From positions 608,001-672,000 of the forward strand of contig OZ242311.1 of the NCBI GenBank assembly GCA_965207885.1: DNA of 64,000 nucleotides, written 5' to 3'. Every line of letters begins with the position of its first letter. The stretch's first letter is position 1. The notes under the pieces were generated by a model. That model saw nothing but the letters and a program-made list of their open reading frames with translations. It made no database searches and had not been told where the DNA came from. Below, piece by piece: positions 1 through 61,970 of this stretch. The DNA comes from Candidatus Latescibacterota bacterium. Its GTDB lineage: Bacteria; Latescibacterota; UBA2968. Position numbers and translations under genes: made by a program.

Positions 1-67
1 CATCGCGGCATGATCCCCTGCTCAACACCACGCAGGGGCATGGTTGAGCCGCGATCCAGAAGGTTTT
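1..67 (+). repeat. REP-like palindromic repeat (catcgcggc...gccgcgatccagaaggtttt family), composite copy with internal hairpin
   Basis: Same motif recurs at 30347, 45883, 47403, 52399 and 57266, always intergenic and in the same orientation. Confidence 0.8.
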
Positions 68-22341: not shown

Positions 22342-22770
22342 TTATCTTCCCTTTTTTAGAAGCGGTGAGAAATAAAAAATCACTTGACCAATGATTACGT
22401 CCCTTGTTGTGTATAAAAACTGTAAATATCTACAAAGATCAGAAAATTGGAAAAATCTACTGTTCCGTCATTAAGGGGGTTATACCCTTAATAGGAAATA
22501 CGCCCTTAGCTGCTTTTTTAAGATGAAGGAAGGACCCGCCCGACATAAAAAGAGACTTTATAGTATAGCGGTCGTATTTTGTGCGTTTTATCTTGGCTCT
22601 CCTTTTGGTCTGAACAACTCCATTTTAATGGCTTCCGGTAGTGTCTCAGTTTGAAAATTTGCGGTTTTCTGTTGACAGGGGTACGGTGCGTACTTTATTA
22701 TTCAACTTAACCCGCAGATTTCGTTCGTTCACAAGAGAAATACATTCAGGATTCAGGAGGGCAACCGACT

Positions 22771-22986
22771 ATGCCAAAGGGACCAAACGGAGAAAAGCGC
22801 CCTGGCGATGTCGTATCTTGTGCTGTAACAGTAGCACGTATTGCAACCGGTGAAATAGAAGATACGAAATACAAACAGCCAGGCAAACGAAAAGGAGGGG
22901 TCGCAGGTGGGCGTGCCCGTGCAAAAGCACTCTCGCCAAAGCGACGCAAAGAAATAGCGAAAAAAGCTGCCGCCGCAAGGTGGTAG
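22771..22986 (+). CDS. Small basic IS-associated protein
   Basis: MPKGPNGEKRPGD...GGRARAKALSPKRRKEIAKKAAAARW; SD; followed by a terminator at ~23004-23033. Confidence 0.85.
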   Translation: MPKGPNGEKRPGDVVSCAVTVARIATGEIEDTKYKQPGKRKGGVAGGRARAKALSPKRRKEIAKKAAAARW

Positions 22987-23091
22987 CTATCAGAGCAAGG
23001 AATAAGCCGAGGTCTATACGATCTCGGCTTTTTTGTTTTCAAAAACCACTCTATCCTTGACAATGGCTTTTTGCAGTGGTACATTTCTTAT

Positions 23092-23250
23092 GCTTCAGAT
23101 TAGTCACACTCAGTAGAGGCCCCGCTTGGTCGGGTAGCCTGCTGAATAGAATAGCCAAATTGTGGAGCGGATTAGCTACCCGTCCCCGGTGAATAGGTAG
23201 GGCCCTCCTCGCATCTCTCTGCGTGAGTGTGACTACTACCCGGCATCCTT
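23092..23250 (+). ncRNA. Putative structured ncRNA, copy A
   Basis: Promoter TTGACA(23057)-17-TACATT; stems tagtcacactca/tgagtgtgacta and cgggtagc/gctacccg; homologous to 58340-59420. Confidence 0.65.
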
Positions 23251-23280
23251 GCGCAATCTTTTCCACACACATTCATACAC

Positions 23281-23385
23281 AAAAAAGAGCCGGAAGACTC
23301 TGGCGGAGCCTCCCGGCAAAGGCAGACACGCGAACCACCCGTTGAAAGTTTATCGCTGCATCCACCTGATTCGTAAATGAGTGGA
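23281..23385 (-). ncRNA. Putative ~100-nt sRNA convergent on ncRNA A
   Basis: Minus-strand TTGACA (~23418) with TACTTT -10; GC hairpin then U6 ending at 23281. Confidence 0.4.
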
Positions 23386-23465
23386 TTTCAAAGTAAGTAA
23401 AAACCTGCTTTGTGTCAATTCTGTTACAGGTGGATGTGGCGACTCACCACACAGAGGAGGTTTAA

Positions 23466-24098
23466 ATGTATAGGTTCATTCTTGCTGTTTTGTCGGTACT
23501 TGTGTACTCTGCTGGCTCGCCAATGCTCGCTACTGAGCGGCCTTATTTACGGACTGATAGCGGCCAAGCCCGTCAGTTGCGCTATTCGGAGATCTATGCA
23601 ACGGCCTGGTACGGAACAGAGGGCACCATTAACCTTCATATAATAATGTCATGGACTCCTAGCAATTCCATGACCTTCGTGAAATGGTTAGTAGTCAACG
23701 ATACGGCTCGGGATCTGTATTCTGTGACCATTGGAGACAGGGAGTACGAGTGTTCTAATGGAAATGTGATAACCGTCAAGGGGAATTGGTGGACTGATCC
23801 CTTGGAGGGCAGAAGGGTAGATGACACCGTGGTCATTGGAGGCAGGGAGTACGAATTGCCGCGGGGGTGGATGCGGCGTGTTGGTGGGACCAACCCCGAC
23901 ATCATACTCCACAAGAAGTCTCCGCGCGGCCAGAAGGAGTGTCCGCGCATCACAAGCATCCGCCTGAAGGGAGACCCTAAATCTCTTGTTAAATACCTCA
24001 TCAACAAAGGTGACAAAGATGTGCATGGCTGGGGAGAGGGCGGGCGAGTTGAGGTTTACCGGAAGGTATCCCGTCGCTGGAAATTGGAGATTAAATAG
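23466..24098 (+). CDS. Secreted hypothetical passenger protein
   Basis: SD GAGGAGG; signal peptide MYRFILAVLSVLVYSAGSPMLA. Confidence 0.8.
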   Translation: MYRFILAVLSVLVYSAGSPMLATERPYLRTDSGQARQLRYSEIYATAWYGTEGTINLHIIMSWTPSNSMTFVKWLVVNDTARDLYSVTIGDREYECSNGNVITVKGNWWTDPLEGRRVDDTVVIGGREYELPRGWMRRVGGTNPDIILHKKSPRGQKECPRITSIRLKGDPKSLVKYLINKGDKDVHGWGEGGRVEVYRKVSRRWKLEIK

Positions 24099-24116
24099 GC
24101 CACATAGCTTTAGTCG

Positions 24117-24302
24117 CTATCGCGGGATCTGATAATCCTCAATGACCGTGATTTCCTCCAAGGTGACGCCTGGTGCTGGTCTGATGGTTTTTACCAATAT
24201 CTGACGCTTCTTCTGCTGTTCGGCCCGATTCTGCCTTTCAGGGCAGATTCTGGTGCATAGCACATAATAGCCAAGATACGGGCATTGCTGACACTTTACC
24301 AT
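24117..24302 (-). CDS. Cys4 micro-protein, copy A (61 aa)
   Basis: CxxCPYLGYYVLCTRxC; SD AGAGGAG; homologue at 60683-60862. Confidence 0.75.
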   Translation of the reverse strand: MVKCQQCPYLGYYVLCTRICPERQNRAEQQKKRQILVKTIRPAPGVTLEEITVIEDYQIPR

Positions 24303-24362
24303 GACAGAGGTCTCCTCTAACTAAAGACTTGACCTCAGTACACAAATTTAGTATAATCTAAG

Positions 24363-24412
24363 TGTCTGGTGCCAAGGCATTCTTTTGGGGCGTGCTCATA
24401 ACACGCCCTTTT
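24363..24412 (+). ncRNA. Putative antisense sRNA to the Cys4 mRNA leader (A)
   Basis: TTGACC(24329)-17-TATAAT(24352), then hairpin gggcgtg/cacgccc and TTTT. Confidence 0.55.
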
Positions 24413-24553
24413 CCTTGCCCACCTCATTTTCGGCAGGCTCGTTGCGCTCTGCAACTATTCAATATTAACCGTTTTTCCCCACCCTGTCAACCATTCCCAC
24501 TTAGTTTGACATAAATGCTTGACAAACAGCACCTTAATCGCTAAATTTAAGGT

Positions 24554-25393
24554 ATGAATAAGTTAAGCAAAAACAAGCGGATACAGATACTTGCGATGTT
24601 GTGTGAGGGCATGTCGATGCGGTCGGTAAGCCGTGTTGTCGGGTGTTCTATCAACTCCGTATTGAAGTTGTTGGTAGATGCAGGACAGGTGTGTGCGTTT
24701 TACCATGATGAGCATGTGCGCGGTATAGAAGCAGCCCATATCCAGTGTGATGAGATATGGGCTTTTTGTTATTGTAAGCAGAAAACGGTAGAAAACGGGA
24801 ATGTGGATCAATACGGTGCGGGTGATGTGTGGACGTGGACGGCATTAGAGCGAGACACAAAGTTGATCATTGCCTATGAGGTCGGAGATCGGTCTGCTGT
24901 GACCGCAATGGAGTTTATATCGAATCTCCGTGCGAGATTGGTGACCCGGGTACAATTGACGACGGATGGCCTGAGGGCGTATCTCGAAGCGGTCGAGGGC
25001 GCGTTTGGTGATGATATAGACTTTGCCCAATTGGTGAAGATTTACGATACTGAGACGAACCAGTTGAAACGTGTGGTGATTGGAAACCCTGTTGAGAGCG
25101 ATATTTCAACATCCCACGTTGAGCGTCAGAATCTCAATATGCGAATGGGGATGCGCCGGTTTACGCGACTGACGAATGCGTTTTCAAAGAAGTTGGAAAA
25201 CCACATTCACATGCTGAGTCTCTACTTTCTGTATTACAATTTCGTGCGGATGCATTTGACGTTGGAGACAACGCCAGCAGTCGCGGCAGGGTTGGCAGAC
25301 GAAGCCTACACAATGGGCTGGATCGTTGACCTGGTGGATGCTCACGCACCCAAACCCAATCGACCAAAAACGTACCGCAAAATTTCAAACTGA
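24554..25393 (+). CDS. IS1-family DDE transposase
   Basis: N-term HTH (EGMSMRSVSR), QCDEIW, TTDG, VERQN, RRFTRLTNAFSKK; stop codon inside the IR. Confidence 0.9.
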   Translation: MNKLSKNKRIQILAMLCEGMSMRSVSRVVGCSINSVLKLLVDAGQVCAFYHDEHVRGIEAAHIQCDEIWAFCYCKQKTVENGNVDQYGAGDVWTWTALERDTKLIIAYEVGDRSAVTAMEFISNLRARLVTRVQLTTDGLRAYLEAVEGAFGDDIDFAQLVKIYDTETNQLKRVVIGNPVESDISTSHVERQNLNMRMGMRRFTRLTNAFSKKLENHIHMLSLYFLYYNFVRMHLTLETTPAVAAGLADEAYTMGWIVDLVDAHAPKPNRPKTYRKISN

Positions 25394-25402
25394 GACACTA
25401 CC

Positions 25403-27746: not shown

Positions 27747-27846
27747 GTACGGGCGACCACAGGGGGTCGCCCCTACAAGTCACAATATCATCGTAGGGGA
27801 CGGTCCCCGTATAGAGACATTACGGGGCAGGCCCTGTGCCGTCCCT
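27747..27846. repeat. GTAG-type REP-like palindromes
   Basis: gggcgacc/ggtcgccc-ctac, gtaggggacgg; a similar element lies at ~45827-45880. Confidence 0.6.
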
Positions 27847-58281: not shown

Positions 58282-58347
58282 ATTATCCCTCCAAAAAGTT
58301 TTTCTTTGCTCTACGGCAAAGTGTAACTATATTGCTCTTGTTCATCA

Positions 58348-59218
58348 TTAGGTAGTGTCTGAAAAGTAAGCTTTGAAGAGTTGTCTGATACAGGCCAGCT
58401 TGACCATAGTGAGAAAATGAGTCGCCTTTTTTTCAAATCGGGTCACAATCCGTCGGCAGTGTTTAAGCCAACCAAAGAGACGCTCCACGATATTGCGTTT
58501 GGCATATAATCTTTTATCACACTTAGGCCGTGGTCCTCTCTTACGCCGTTTTCTGCCTTTGGGAATCGCCTTGTTTGGGATAGCAGCCTTGATACCCCGT
58601 TTGCGTAGATAGACTCTGATGCGTGAGACATCATAAGATTTATCAGCTACCAGATACTTGGGTCGGTTTCTTGGACGCCCTCGTTTGGTGGGTATGCATA
58701 CCTTTGACAGTAGCCTTTCAGCCTGTGTGGATTCTGACTGGTTACCAGGGAGAAGATCCACTGCTAAAGGATGCCCGACTGCATCGCAAAGAAGATGGAT
58801 TTTCGTGGTCAAACCGCCACGAGAGCGTCCTAAAGCGTGATCTGGGGGCTCTTCTTCACCCTTTTTGCCCTTTTTTTTTCGCTCCTGCCGCGGCTTGTGT
58901 GGCTCGAATATGGGTTGCATCCATCATCCAGGTCGCATAATCTAAAAGACCATCTTCACCCAATTTGAGATGTAGCTTTTCTACAATGCGATCAAAGGTG
59001 CCATCCTGTTTCCATTTGCAGAATCGGTCAAAGGCTGTCTGCCAAGGACCATATCGTTCTGGCAGGTCGCGCCAAGCTGCACCTGAACACAATATCCAGA
59101 AGATCCCGTTGAATAATGTACGATCATCCCGACGGGGACGACCCATCTTCTTCGGCGGTGGGAACAGGTCTTGGATCAGATGCCAAGCCTCGTCGCGCAG
59201 TTCATATCTCCGTTGCAT
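58348..59218 (-). CDS. IS5 transposase in two overlapping ORFs (58856-59218 and 58348-58920), probable programmed frameshift
   Basis: WRDLPERYG, DAT; GRSRGG.TTK, ADKSY, RNIVERLF; A9 run in the overlap. Confidence 0.9.
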
Positions 59219-59287
59219 ATCATACTCCTTGGTTTAGGGCGTATGCTGCAACTAAAATACATACTTTACGACTTTTCAGACACTACC
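58351..59287 (-). mobile_element. IS5-family (IS427-like) element, 937 bp
   Basis: 17-bp IRs ggtagtgtctgaaaagt; TA duplication. Confidence 0.93.
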
Positions 59288-59507
59288 TAGGCAAACACCC
59301 GGAGGTCGGGTGGCCTACTAAATACAAGAGCCTTACAAAGGTCGGACTTGCTACCCGACCGGTGAATAGGTAGGACTTTCCGTAGATGTGTTTGCGTAAT
59401 GGTGAACTCCGCCCGGCACCTTTTTAAGTGCCGAGAGGGGGCACAGCATCATGCTTGCACATCCCTTCTGATCGAAGATAAAATCGCCTTACGCGAGATT
59501 ATGTGCC

Positions 59508-59556
59508 AAAGCCCTGGCGGATAAACAGTTATCGTTTATTGTCCGCCGGGGCTTTT
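59508..59556 (+). terminator. Strong intrinsic terminator/attenuator
   Basis: aaagccctggcgga...tccgccggggcttttt. Confidence 0.75.
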
Positions 59557-59770
59557 TGTTTTTGCTGTGCCTCACGCACCGTGCTGTTCATCATCATTGG
59601 CATTGCGCTACCAAATGCATGAGCACTTCGGAGACAGGTTGCTAATCTGTCCAGGCAGTGGGGCACAGCTTGAACGGAAAGGAGGTGAATTAGGTTAATT
59701 CAGCCTCATTGTAGTATGCCACAAAAACAACCAATTCGCAAGTTTTTACAACAAGGAAAGGAGAAGAGTA

Positions 59771-60060: not shown

Positions 60061-60696
60061 ATGAAGTTTCGCAACTTACTCACGGTGGCCTTTCTGATGC
60101 TGACGGTCAACATCCAAGCGAGTCCACTTGGAGAGAACCCGTTTGGCTTCAAGATGGGTATAACTCAAGACGATGTGCGCAACTTGGAAGGCGTTGTTGT
60201 CGATAGTGCCTGGGTATCGGGAAAGACAAAAGTTTTGACACTCTCCAAAGTGCCAGTGCCAGATGCAAGGTTTGTGACCTTTAACCTGTATTTCACAGAG
60301 AAGCACGGCCTTTATACACTTCAGGCCATGAGCAATTTTCTCAGGGTTGGGACAGGCGGGCAGGACATTATGCCGAAATATGTTGCGCTTCGTGAAGAAT
60401 TGGCAAAAATCTATGATAAGTACACCAAATATGGATTCACCAAATCGGCTTATGTGGATGGCATCGCCACTTGGGAGACTGGTATTGAGTGGGCATTGCA
60501 AGTCAGAAAGGGAAGCGGTCGGCACGATGGGCACGCTTTCGTTTCAAACTGGCTATTAGGCTTGGGTGGTCAAAAACAAAGCGAGCAACTCAGCATTGTT
60601 GGGCTATCAATCAGGGTGTGGGATCCCGCAAACCTTGTGCTGACATTCGGCTTTCGCAATATGCATGATGCCGGCGACTATGTTAGTAATCCTTGA
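60061..60696 (+). CDS. Secreted hypothetical passenger protein
   Basis: Signal peptide MKFRNLLTVAFLMLTVNIQA; PFGFKMG. Confidence 0.75.
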   Translation: MKFRNLLTVAFLMLTVNIQASPLGENPFGFKMGITQDDVRNLEGVVVDSAWVSGKTKVLTLSKVPVPDARFVTFNLYFTEKHGLYTLQAMSNFLRVGTGGQDIMPKYVALREELAKIYDKYTKYGFTKSAYVDGIATWETGIEWALQVRKGSGRHDGHAFVSNWLLGLGGQKQSEQLSIVGLSIRVWDPANLVLTFGFRNMHDAGDYVSNP

Positions 60697-60862
60697 TGAC
60701 CACGGTGGTCTTCCAAGTGATGCGTGGCCTGGAGTTTCTTGCCAATATCCGGTTGAGATCTTTCCTGTTCTGTTGTTCGACCCGGCTCTGCCTTTCATGA
60801 CAGGTTCTGGTGCATAGCACATAATAGCCAAGATACGGGCAGTTCTGGCATTTGAATTCCAT
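60683..60862 (-). CDS. Cys4 micro-protein, copy B (59 aa, absent from ORF track)
   Basis: MEFKCQNCPYLGYYVLCTRTCHERQSRVEQQ...VIKDY; SD AAGGAG. Confidence 0.75.
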   Translation of the reverse strand: MEFKCQNCPYLGYYVLCTRTCHERQSRVEQQNRKDLNRILARNSRPRITWKTTVVIKDY

Positions 60863-61028: not shown

Positions 61029-61970
61029 TCAAGCCGTGAGGTCGCAATACCTCAGCCGTTTCCCCTCAAATCCTCGCACGATCATCTTCATCTGCTCAAT
61101 GGTGTCCTTCATCCGCATGTTCTGCCGTGCCACAAACTCTGCGATATACCTCCACAGGTGCTTCTTGCTCATCTTGTGATACACACCCATGATGGCACGT
61201 TTGATGCCCGACCAGAAAGATTCGATGCCGTTTGTGTGAGCGTCATCTCGGACATATTCTCCCCGCGAGTGAATCACCTTTTCGTGTTCGTATCCTTCCA
61301 GGTCATTATAGACGTGTGACCCGTCTGTATAGACGGTTGCACCCTTCTTGGTGCGATCTTCTATAAACGCGTGTAGGGTGTCCTCATCGGGATCGTCAAT
61401 CACAAGGGCCTGAACCTGTTTGGTCTCTCTATTCTTCACGCCAGCCACAGGGATTTTGCCCGATGTGCCTCTGCCAGCACGCAGTTTCTTCTTCGCGTGT
61501 TTGTTGCCTTCCTTGCCGCCGATATAGGTCTCATCAACTTCTACTGTGCCCTCAAACAGGAAGAGTTGCTCTTCTGCCATCGCCTCACGGATACGATGCA
61601 GAAGATGCCATGCTGTTTTCTGTGTGACACTCAAATCACGATGGATCTTCATGGATGAAATCCCTTTGAGTGTGGTGGTAAAAAGATAGACAGCAAATGC
61701 CCATATCTGATAGCCAAGGTTGGAACACGCCATAATGGTGCCCGTCTTTACAGAGAACCGTTTGTCACAGTCCCTGCATCTGTGTGGCATGGTCTTGTGC
61801 GCCGTCCTTTCATTCACATTGACACTCCCACAACACGGGCAGGCCATCCCATCAGGCCAGCGTGTGTGGATAAACCACTTCTCTGCGGTCGCGTTGTCGG
61901 GGAACATCTTGAACAACTGGATGAGGGATATGCCCTCTCGCTGATGCATGCCAGGCGCATTGCGTGCCAT
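61029..61970 (-). CDS. IS1595-family DDE transposase
   Basis: Zn ribbon CPCC..C..C, QKTAW HTH, VEVDET, YTDG, NGIESFW. Confidence 0.95.
   Translation of the reverse strand: MARNAPGMHQREGISLIQLFKMFPDNATAEKWFIHTRWPDGMACPCCGSVNVNERTAHKTMPHRCRDCDKRFSVKTGTIMACSNLGYQIWAFAVYLFTTTLKGISSMKIHRDLSVTQKTAWHLLHRIREAMAEEQLFLFEGTVEVDETYIGGKEGNKHAKKKLRAGRGTSGKIPVAGVKNRETKQVQALVIDDPDEDTLHAFIEDRTKKGATVYTDGSHVYNDLEGYEHEKVIHSRGEYVRDDAHTNGIESFWSGIKRAIMGVYHKMSKKHLWRYIAEFVARQNMRMKDTIEQMKMIVRGFEGKRLRYCDLTA

Follow-up and report, generated by a model that had tools for sequence, protein, structure and literature searches.

A candidate family of promoter-proximal, riboswitch-like leader RNAs in Latescibacterota, with a variable 5'-terminal helix predicted to cross its conserved core

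A short conserved sequence occurs twice in a 64,000-nucleotide stretch of the genome of a Candidatus Latescibacterota bacterium (this whole stretch is the window in what follows), and raises the question of whether it encodes a functional RNA and, if so, of what kind. The first-pass annotation of this DNA had read the two copies, A and B, as a noncoding RNA with a covarying basal stem, a possible pseudoknot and a loose likeness to phage C4-type antisense RNAs. The repetition itself is clear: the window holds two occurrences, and no more, of each of two conserved blocks quoted in that annotation (one block at 23128 and 59304, the other at 23186 and 59359), shuffles gave an expectation of 0 for the first block, and the alignment of A with B spans about 120 nt. 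Both basal stems can also be drawn as described. That of copy A joins 23101-23112 to 23224-23235 in 12 bp, extended by three further pairs (23113-23115 with 23220-23222), and that of copy B, read across the insertion of an IS5-family element, pairs 58340-58350 plus 59290-59298 with 59388-59407 at 19 of 20 positions; in the uninterrupted relative L080, the 5' strand is identical to that of copy B and folds as a stem of 11+8 bp. A functional RNA on the plus strand with a covarying basal stem is now strongly supported by about 100 homologues, and the proposed leaning of G-U pairs toward that strand holds across the family, pair 2-183 of helix P1 being U-G in 83 of 101 sequences and pair 13-123 of helix P2 being G-U in 34. 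Our reading, which we consider probable, is that these homologues form a new family of promoter-proximal structured leader RNAs, riboswitch-like two-state cis-regulators of diverse genes, mostly genes for exported proteins. The features of the window on which the argument draws are collected in Table 1.

Table 1. Leader RNA copies, their predicted helices and associated elements in the window
Feature	Position	Strand	Remarks
Copy A, conserved core (P1-P5)	23129..23247	+	Structured model R2: 111.6 bits, E 1.9e-21
Copy A, Pa 5' strand (12 nt + GUA)	23101..23115	+	Family-wide covariation of Pa
Copy A, Pa 3' strand (UGC, bulged G, 12 nt)	23220..23235	+	Abuts P1 3' strand, no linker
Copy A, P1 5' strand (GUCGGGUAG)	23129..23137	+	Partner is 23236-23244
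Copy A, P1 3' strand (CUACCCGGC)	23236..23244	+	Partner is 23129-23137
Copy A, P2-P3-P4 arm	23138..23201	+	Holds near-invariant internal loops AAUAnAAnA and RAAUA
Copy A, P2	23138-23142 x 23197-23201	+	
Copy A, P3	23154-23156 x 23188-23190	+	
Copy A, P4	23164-23170 x 23180-23186	+	
Copy A, P5 hairpin (CGCA/UGCG)	23210..23223	+	P5 3' strand can extend Pa instead
Promoter-like site of copy A	23057..23085	+	TTGACA-17-TACATT, 10/12 matches, TG before -10
First gene downstream of copy A	23466..24098	+	210 aa, hydrophobic N-terminus, no Pfam family
2768-bp repeat with 32-bp terminal inverted repeats and IS1-family transposase (24554-25393)	22635..25402	+	Four identical genome copies
Copy B, conserved core	59305..59420	+	Structured model R2: 96.1 bits
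Copy B, Pa 5' strand, inner half	59290..59298	+	Outer half, 58340-58350, lies beyond the IS
Copy B, Pa 3' strand, 20-position stem	59388..59407	+	Intact relative L080 folds alike
Terminator-like strong hairpin + U-run	59511..59562	+	91 nt past copy B; -25.3 kcal/mol; U-run from 59553
IS5-family element, 941 bp	about 58349..59289	-	Splits copy B from its promoter and outer stem half

Neither window copy is typical of the family: A travels as a passenger in a transposon, at the long distance of 218 nt from its open reading frame (ORF), and B has been severed from its promoter. The promoters that had been proposed just upstream of both were borne out for copy A, which has a TTGACA-17-TACATT site, and not for copy B, beside which the scan found none; the absence arises because the promoter of B now lies beyond the IS, where its old -10 element, TATATT, remains at 58328-58333, and the intact relative has TTGACA-16-TATATT. 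The element that carries copy A is in effect a small cargo-carrying transposon, with a 71-aa basic protein, the leader copy with its 210-aa exported-looking protein, and a small Cys-rich ORF as passengers. The IS5-family element is present in at least 22 nearly identical genome copies, has two overlapping ORFs probably joined by a frameshift, and was inserted at a TA within the basal stem of copy B. Together with an IS1595-family transposase gene close to the B cassette (61029-61970, minus strand), the IS1 and IS5 elements make the window dense in mobile elements. Among the smaller features nearby, the 71-aa lysine/arginine-rich protein (22771-22986, plus strand), which ends in KRRKEIAKKAAAARW and has its own terminator at 23004-23030, matches no family and was found only in the four transposon copies. 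The Cys-rich ORF (24117-24302 and about 60690-60860, both on the minus strand), 61 aa long in A, where it begins with MVKCQQCPYLGYYVLC, has no Pfam family and is common to the A and B cassettes only, its two versions being 87% identical over 87 nt of DNA and 54% identical as proteins; as to a possible protein partner, neither of these two small proteins adjoins any other leader copy. In the interval from copy A to its gene, a terminator-like hairpin with a T-run (23286-23317) is oriented for the minus strand, on which there is no gene for it to end, and at 27749-27845 there are sequences of about 30-95 nt, repeated at no fewer than 15 places in the genome with 86-100% identity, that may be a small interspersed repeat. 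The segment 22700-24200 of the window is present whole in four runs of one sample, and 31-78% of its sampled words recur in sponge-metagenome DNA runs of three other studies; no RNA run is among those listed for it.

Beyond the window, the motif is widespread but unevenly distributed. Nine copies of the leader RNA are found in the window's own genome, four of them identical because copy A rides the 2768-bp element. A sequence-only model (R1) found the motif in 50 of 101 relatives, and the structured model (R2) in 62 of the 151 genomes that were sampled within the phylum; the positive genomes carry 1-13 copies and are spread patchily over genera: 18/19, 15/15 and 18/22 genomes in three genera, and 0/8 and 0/5 in others (genome G015 belongs to the same genus as the window's genome). 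Outside the phylum, five genomes from three other phyla carry 1-6 copies each. A scan of 185,579 species genomes with a first pattern, which proved too loose, gave 72 loci of which R1 confirmed 7: two in Latescibacteria, two in Binatia, one in Dehalococcoidia and two in Rhodothermales records. The stricter pattern used for metagenomes and viral contigs gave 25 metagenomic loci, 25/25 of them confirmed by R2, and 0 copies in the viral contigs; BLAST returned no copy from phage or plasmid records.

The conserved core of the RNA consists of five helices, P1 to P5, that make up a three-way junction in which P2, P3 and P4 form one arm. In the R2 alignment of 101 distinct sequences, pairing over its 30 pairs reaches 93.0%, compared with 78.5% in shuffles (0/500 shuffles as high), 25 of the 30 show changes on both sides, and slid controls are 33-43% paired; these figures lean toward the fold, and the shuffle controls overstate significance, because the alignment was fitted to the model and the sequences are interrelated. 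A structure-free alignment already has P1, P2 and P3 nearly fully canonical, with several pair types each. The 9-bp P1 (GUCGGGUnn x nnRCCCGRC) is 98% paired over 101 sequences and shows up to six pair types at its inner pairs, for example at 8-177; P2 (CCURCU/GGYAGG) is 99.2% paired and covarying, and the two purine-rich internal loops between P2 and P3, AAUAnAAnA and RAAUA, are near-invariant, as are about 35 nucleotides of the motif in all. The pairing of CCURCU with GGUAGG suggested by the first-pass annotation is therefore real, as it corresponds to P2, and what falls is its interpretation as a pseudoknot: P2 is an ordinary nested helix, because the local hairpin GGGUAGC/GCUACCC that it would have crossed does not covary (71.3% paired against 70.9% in shuffles, 84/500 shuffles as high) and clashes with the well-supported P4. 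A small upstream hairpin, H0 (ACCCG x CGGGU), was also considered and is weak, at 78.9% paired against 76.4% in shuffles. A coding explanation of the conservation was rejected as well, since no frame is open in more than 50 of the 101 cores and core lengths fall in all three classes modulo 3; no frame is conserved on either strand, and the rejection includes the 73-aa antisense ORF (23051-23272).

To this core is added a sixth helix, the basal stem, which we call Pa and which is variable in sequence. It joins the first 12-17 predicted transcribed nucleotides to the stretch preceding the 3' strand of P1. When the upstream 55 nt of each copy were matched with its own and with others' 3' segments, cognate duplexes averaged -23.3 kcal/mol against -13.2 kcal/mol for non-cognate ones, and the cognate partner ranked first in 27 of 74 cases. 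In a plain MAFFT alignment of 101 rows, which omits copy B because of its IS, the 17 positions of Pa are 75.5% paired against 60.7% in shuffles, with 256 cells changed on both sides against 90. Pa and P1 cross, because the Pa strand precedes the P1 strand on the 5' side as well as on the 3' side, where the two adjoin; the crossing pair in this RNA is thus Pa with the 9-bp P1, a helix absent from the structure first proposed. In addition, the inner pairs of Pa (GCAG x CUGC) use the UGCG of P5, and the UGCG strand covaries with both of its partners. In nested folding, a forced P1 is 18 kcal/mol worse than the minimum-energy fold, so that P1 needs either coexistence with Pa as a pseudoknot or some other stabilization. 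The Pa duplex would return about -17 kcal/mol, which is close to this cost, and we therefore think, from these modeled energies, that Pa and P1 coexist as a pseudoknot. For the B-type copies, with a 20-bp Pa and a linker of about 5 nt, such coexistence looks sterically unlikely.

The context of the copies points to where such an RNA would act. A TTGnnn-16..18-TAnnnT site ends 30-39 nt before the GUCGGG of the core in 77 of 102 copies, against a mean of 3.7 and a maximum of 9 in shuffles, and given this fixed distance the predicted transcription start falls at the first nucleotides of Pa; all the starts are inferred from promoter-like sites in the sequence only. On the other side of the motif, a ribosome-binding site and start codon follow on the same strand within 130 nt in 82 of 102 copies, the start codon at a median of 49 nt. 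This leader context points to a cis-acting 5' mRNA leader rather than to an antisense RNA. The genes that follow have little in common. Of the 81 longest downstream ORFs, 52 were compared with Pfam once near-duplicates and doubtful short ORFs had been set aside, and 29 of these have matches, to unrelated families that share no common function indicating a ligand: they include Rce1-like protease, leishmanolysin-like, porin-like, LRR and WD40 families, and further Sel1, dockerin, MunI, SNase and superinfection immunity. The sole common trait of the proteins is a hydrophobic N-terminus, seen by a crude hydropathy test in 48 of 74 against 23% of 668 background ORFs. In three relatives (L117, L118 and L123) the leader stands 18-22 nt before the gene of a MunI-type restriction endonuclease (Pfam E 2e-63 for L117), which would place a restriction enzyme under the same leader as exported proteins. 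Five other loci (L086-L089 and L116) have, about 60-100 nt past the motif and about 200 nt ahead of the main gene, a conserved upstream ORF of 7-9 codons, MF(MF)KNxFT followed by a stop; its ribosome-binding site is strong and complementary to the loop of P5. Attenuation at the Phe codons of short Phe-rich upstream ORFs was considered and set aside because the length of the U-run varies between 7 and 8 among close relatives.

A leader of this kind could regulate its gene if the structured core had a competing partner downstream, and several observations are consistent with one. Directly after the motif lies a predicted hairpin, H6, which in 93 of the 99 members takes up 3 or more nucleotides from the 3' strand of P1. 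Duplexes formed with downstream sequence by the 3' half of the motif (P2/P5 joining region to Pa 3' strand) have an energy of -27.4 kcal/mol when that sequence is the copy's own and of -22.1 kcal/mol when it is non-cognate, and the cognate partner ranks among the top 10 in 43 and first in 9 of 102 copies, a moderate specificity; for the window copies the complementarity is weak (rank 68 for A, 15 for B). The ribosome-binding site lies inside this downstream pairing in 53 of 82 copies. In some subfamilies 5-8 U come directly after the duplex of the P5 region and downstream sequence, which resembles a terminator, but this form is absent from most members, in which a start codon follows instead. 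With 32 nt of upstream and 80 nt of downstream sequence included, the median gap in predicted energy between the Pa state and the downstream-paired state is 1.0 kcal/mol, and the gap is no more than 5 kcal/mol in 57 of 101 copies; of all 101, 58 have a minimum-energy fold with the 5' partner, 32 one with the downstream partner and 11 one with neither. A second copy of the Pa 5' strand downstream is clear in some subfamilies and weak overall (-12.2 against -9.9 kcal/mol, rank 1 in 5/76). Of the features by which riboswitches are recognized, we thus find a covarying structured domain, an inferred 5' UTR position on the same strand, and a predicted expression platform that excludes part of the sensor.

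These elements can be assembled into a mechanism, set out here as a model. The leader, about 150 nt long, with a core of about 120 nt and the 5' clamp strand, would lie at the very start of its mRNAs. Its shared 3' strand, consisting of UGCG, the Pa 3' strand and CUGCCCGGC, would in the ON state pair with three upstream pieces, namely the P5 5' strand, the transcript 5' end and the P1 5' strand, such that P5, Pa and P1 form together, the ribosome-binding site stays free and no terminator is made. In the OFF state the same strand would pair with a single downstream arm, made up of the H6 3' strand, the copy of the Pa 5' strand and then the ribosome-binding-site region, and the resulting long hairpin, capped by H6, would hide the ribosome-binding site or build a terminator. 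The default state should be ON because the upstream partners are made first. More speculatively, the conserved junction and loops may serve as the binding site of a small molecule or protein that settles the choice between the two states. A far-reaching version of this model, in which we place limited confidence and which we regard as doubtful, would have a new riboswitch class with a pseudoknotted ON state, in which the transcript 5' end clamps the sensor; responding to a global signal, for instance a second messenger or a molecule from the host, it would govern a large part of the secreted and surface proteome, eukaryote-like repeat proteins among them. Its bearers would be uncultured bacteria of symbiont type, from four or more phyla, that have exchanged the module horizontally.

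Other explanations have to be weighed against a two-state leader. The RNA might be a small RNA that stands alone and acts in trans or binds a protein, transcribed from its own promoter to its own terminator; the downstream genes would then be mere neighbors or be reached by read-through. Copies of the B type would suit such an RNA, as copy B itself, L081, L083 and L112 have a strong hairpin and U-run 108-132 nt past the motif and before any gene, as would the distance to the next ORF in L080 (360 nt) and in copy A; stable RNAs, moreover, typically have a 5'-terminal helix. Such an RNA would leave without a role the closely spaced translation signals of most copies, the complementarity of the motif 3' half to the ribosome-binding-site region and the overlap of H6 with P1, and no conserved single-stranded seed region is evident, so that we regard it as unlikely. 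We find it equally hard to favor a constitutive module that does not switch, that is, a portable promoter with a structured 5' cap that protects against 5'-end-dependent decay or aids translation or export of secreted-protein mRNAs. That Pa begins at the predicted +1 nucleotide, that promoter and leader travel together before unrelated and often horizontally mobile genes, even inside a transposon, and that exported proteins are enriched would all fit this reading, but a simple 5' hairpin would suffice for protection, and this reading would leave unexplained the near-invariant nucleotides, the H6/P1 overlap, the copy of the 5' strand found downstream, the U-run terminators and the fact that the two states are almost equal in energy.

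The two remaining readings are less probable still. A self-cleaving ribozyme in the 5' UTR would account for a compact fold of several helices, some of which cross, for unpaired nucleotides that do not vary, and for several copies before unrelated genes, as is the case for some bacterial ribozymes; the strand order Pa-5', P1-5', Pa-3', P1-3' is also the P1/P2 order of HDV-like ribozymes. We nonetheless consider it very improbable, given that no Rfam ribozyme model matches even at E up to 10, that P5 precedes the Pa 3' strand whereas P4 follows it in HDV-like folds, and that the downstream complementarity points to regulation. Finally, the resemblance of the Pa 5' strand and its downstream copy to short direct repeats in some members, and the IS elements adjoining the window copies, could suggest a DNA-level element, either a small mobile element or a recombination site with repeated flanks. 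Against this, compensatory changes keep RNA pairs, many of them G-U pairs, for which the opposite strand would have A-C; the repeats are not found where the conserved block begins and ends, they do not enclose the promoter, and the downstream repeat belongs to a subset only; we give this explanation next to no credence.

With the two-state leader as the preferred reading, it can be compared with known systems. A search of the whole window with the 4227 models of Rfam 15 at gathering thresholds returned only two tRNAs, and relaxing the threshold to E up to 10 over positions 22900-23400 added five weak, unrelated matches, none of which overlaps the core. The leader RNA is, on this comparison, a new RNA family with a predicted clamp-and-exchange design that is unusual. 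Riboswitches of the c-di-GMP-I (GEMM-I) type precede many unrelated genes within one genome, and in several respects their leaders are the closest parallel: a core that resembles an aptamer and lies in the 5' UTR, multiple copies in a genome, diverse downstream genes that often encode surface or exported proteins, and control by a terminator or by sequestration of the ribosome-binding site, with a basal helix P1 that competes with a downstream hairpin. In contrast to them, the present RNA has no sequence or structure match of relevance in Rfam, combines a three-way junction with a 5'-terminal clamp crossing P1, and may not have a ligand at all. The likeness to C4-type antisense RNAs proposed by the first-pass annotation did not hold up, as no Rfam match was obtained even at E up to 10 and neither viral contigs nor phage records hold a copy. 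The leader RNA does share with the C4 RNAs of phages P1 and P7 a small structured form and a nearby sigma-70-like promoter, but it stands outside a phage context, the neighbors of copy A being an IS1-family transposase and genes without a known family rather than a phage immunity region, and it would, under the model, act on its own downstream mRNA. To HDV-like ribozymes it is alike in having two crossing helices in the order 5'a, 5'b, 3'a, 3'b and in that the second crossing helix is directly followed by a further helix on the 5' side; it differs in the placement of the hairpin, in its far more numerous conserved nucleotides and in matching no model. Stabilizer hairpins at the 5' ends of mRNAs, such as that of the ompA leader, similarly include the first transcribed nucleotides, in mRNAs for envelope proteins, but the helix described here encloses a large conserved domain, and a further partner for its 3' strand lies downstream. 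Orphan structured-RNA motifs come from the comparative genomics of metagenomes (Weinberg et al. 2010, PMC2864571), and the leader RNA resembles them in being known only from covariation, in being restricted to uncultured lineages and in that a function is not established; it is not among the 4227 Rfam 15 families. A full-text literature search returned no description of the leader RNA, and the supplements of motif-discovery papers could hold one.

If the proposed reading is true, one undescribed RNA control element stands over dozens of unrelated exported-protein genes in uncultured Latescibacteria, and the same element is at work in some Binatia, Dehalococcoidia and Rhodothermales. The design itself would be novel, in that three helices formed on one strand are swapped for one long hairpin, with a clamp supplied by the transcript 5' end; we know of no riboswitch class that combines a three-helix exchange with a 5'-end clamp. 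Even without a ligand, what remains is a new RNA family that is well supported and suited to Rfam, together with a portable module of promoter and leader. Should the proposed reading hold, it would also provide a new sensor fold for ligand probing and offer a direct handle on what these bacteria regulate together.
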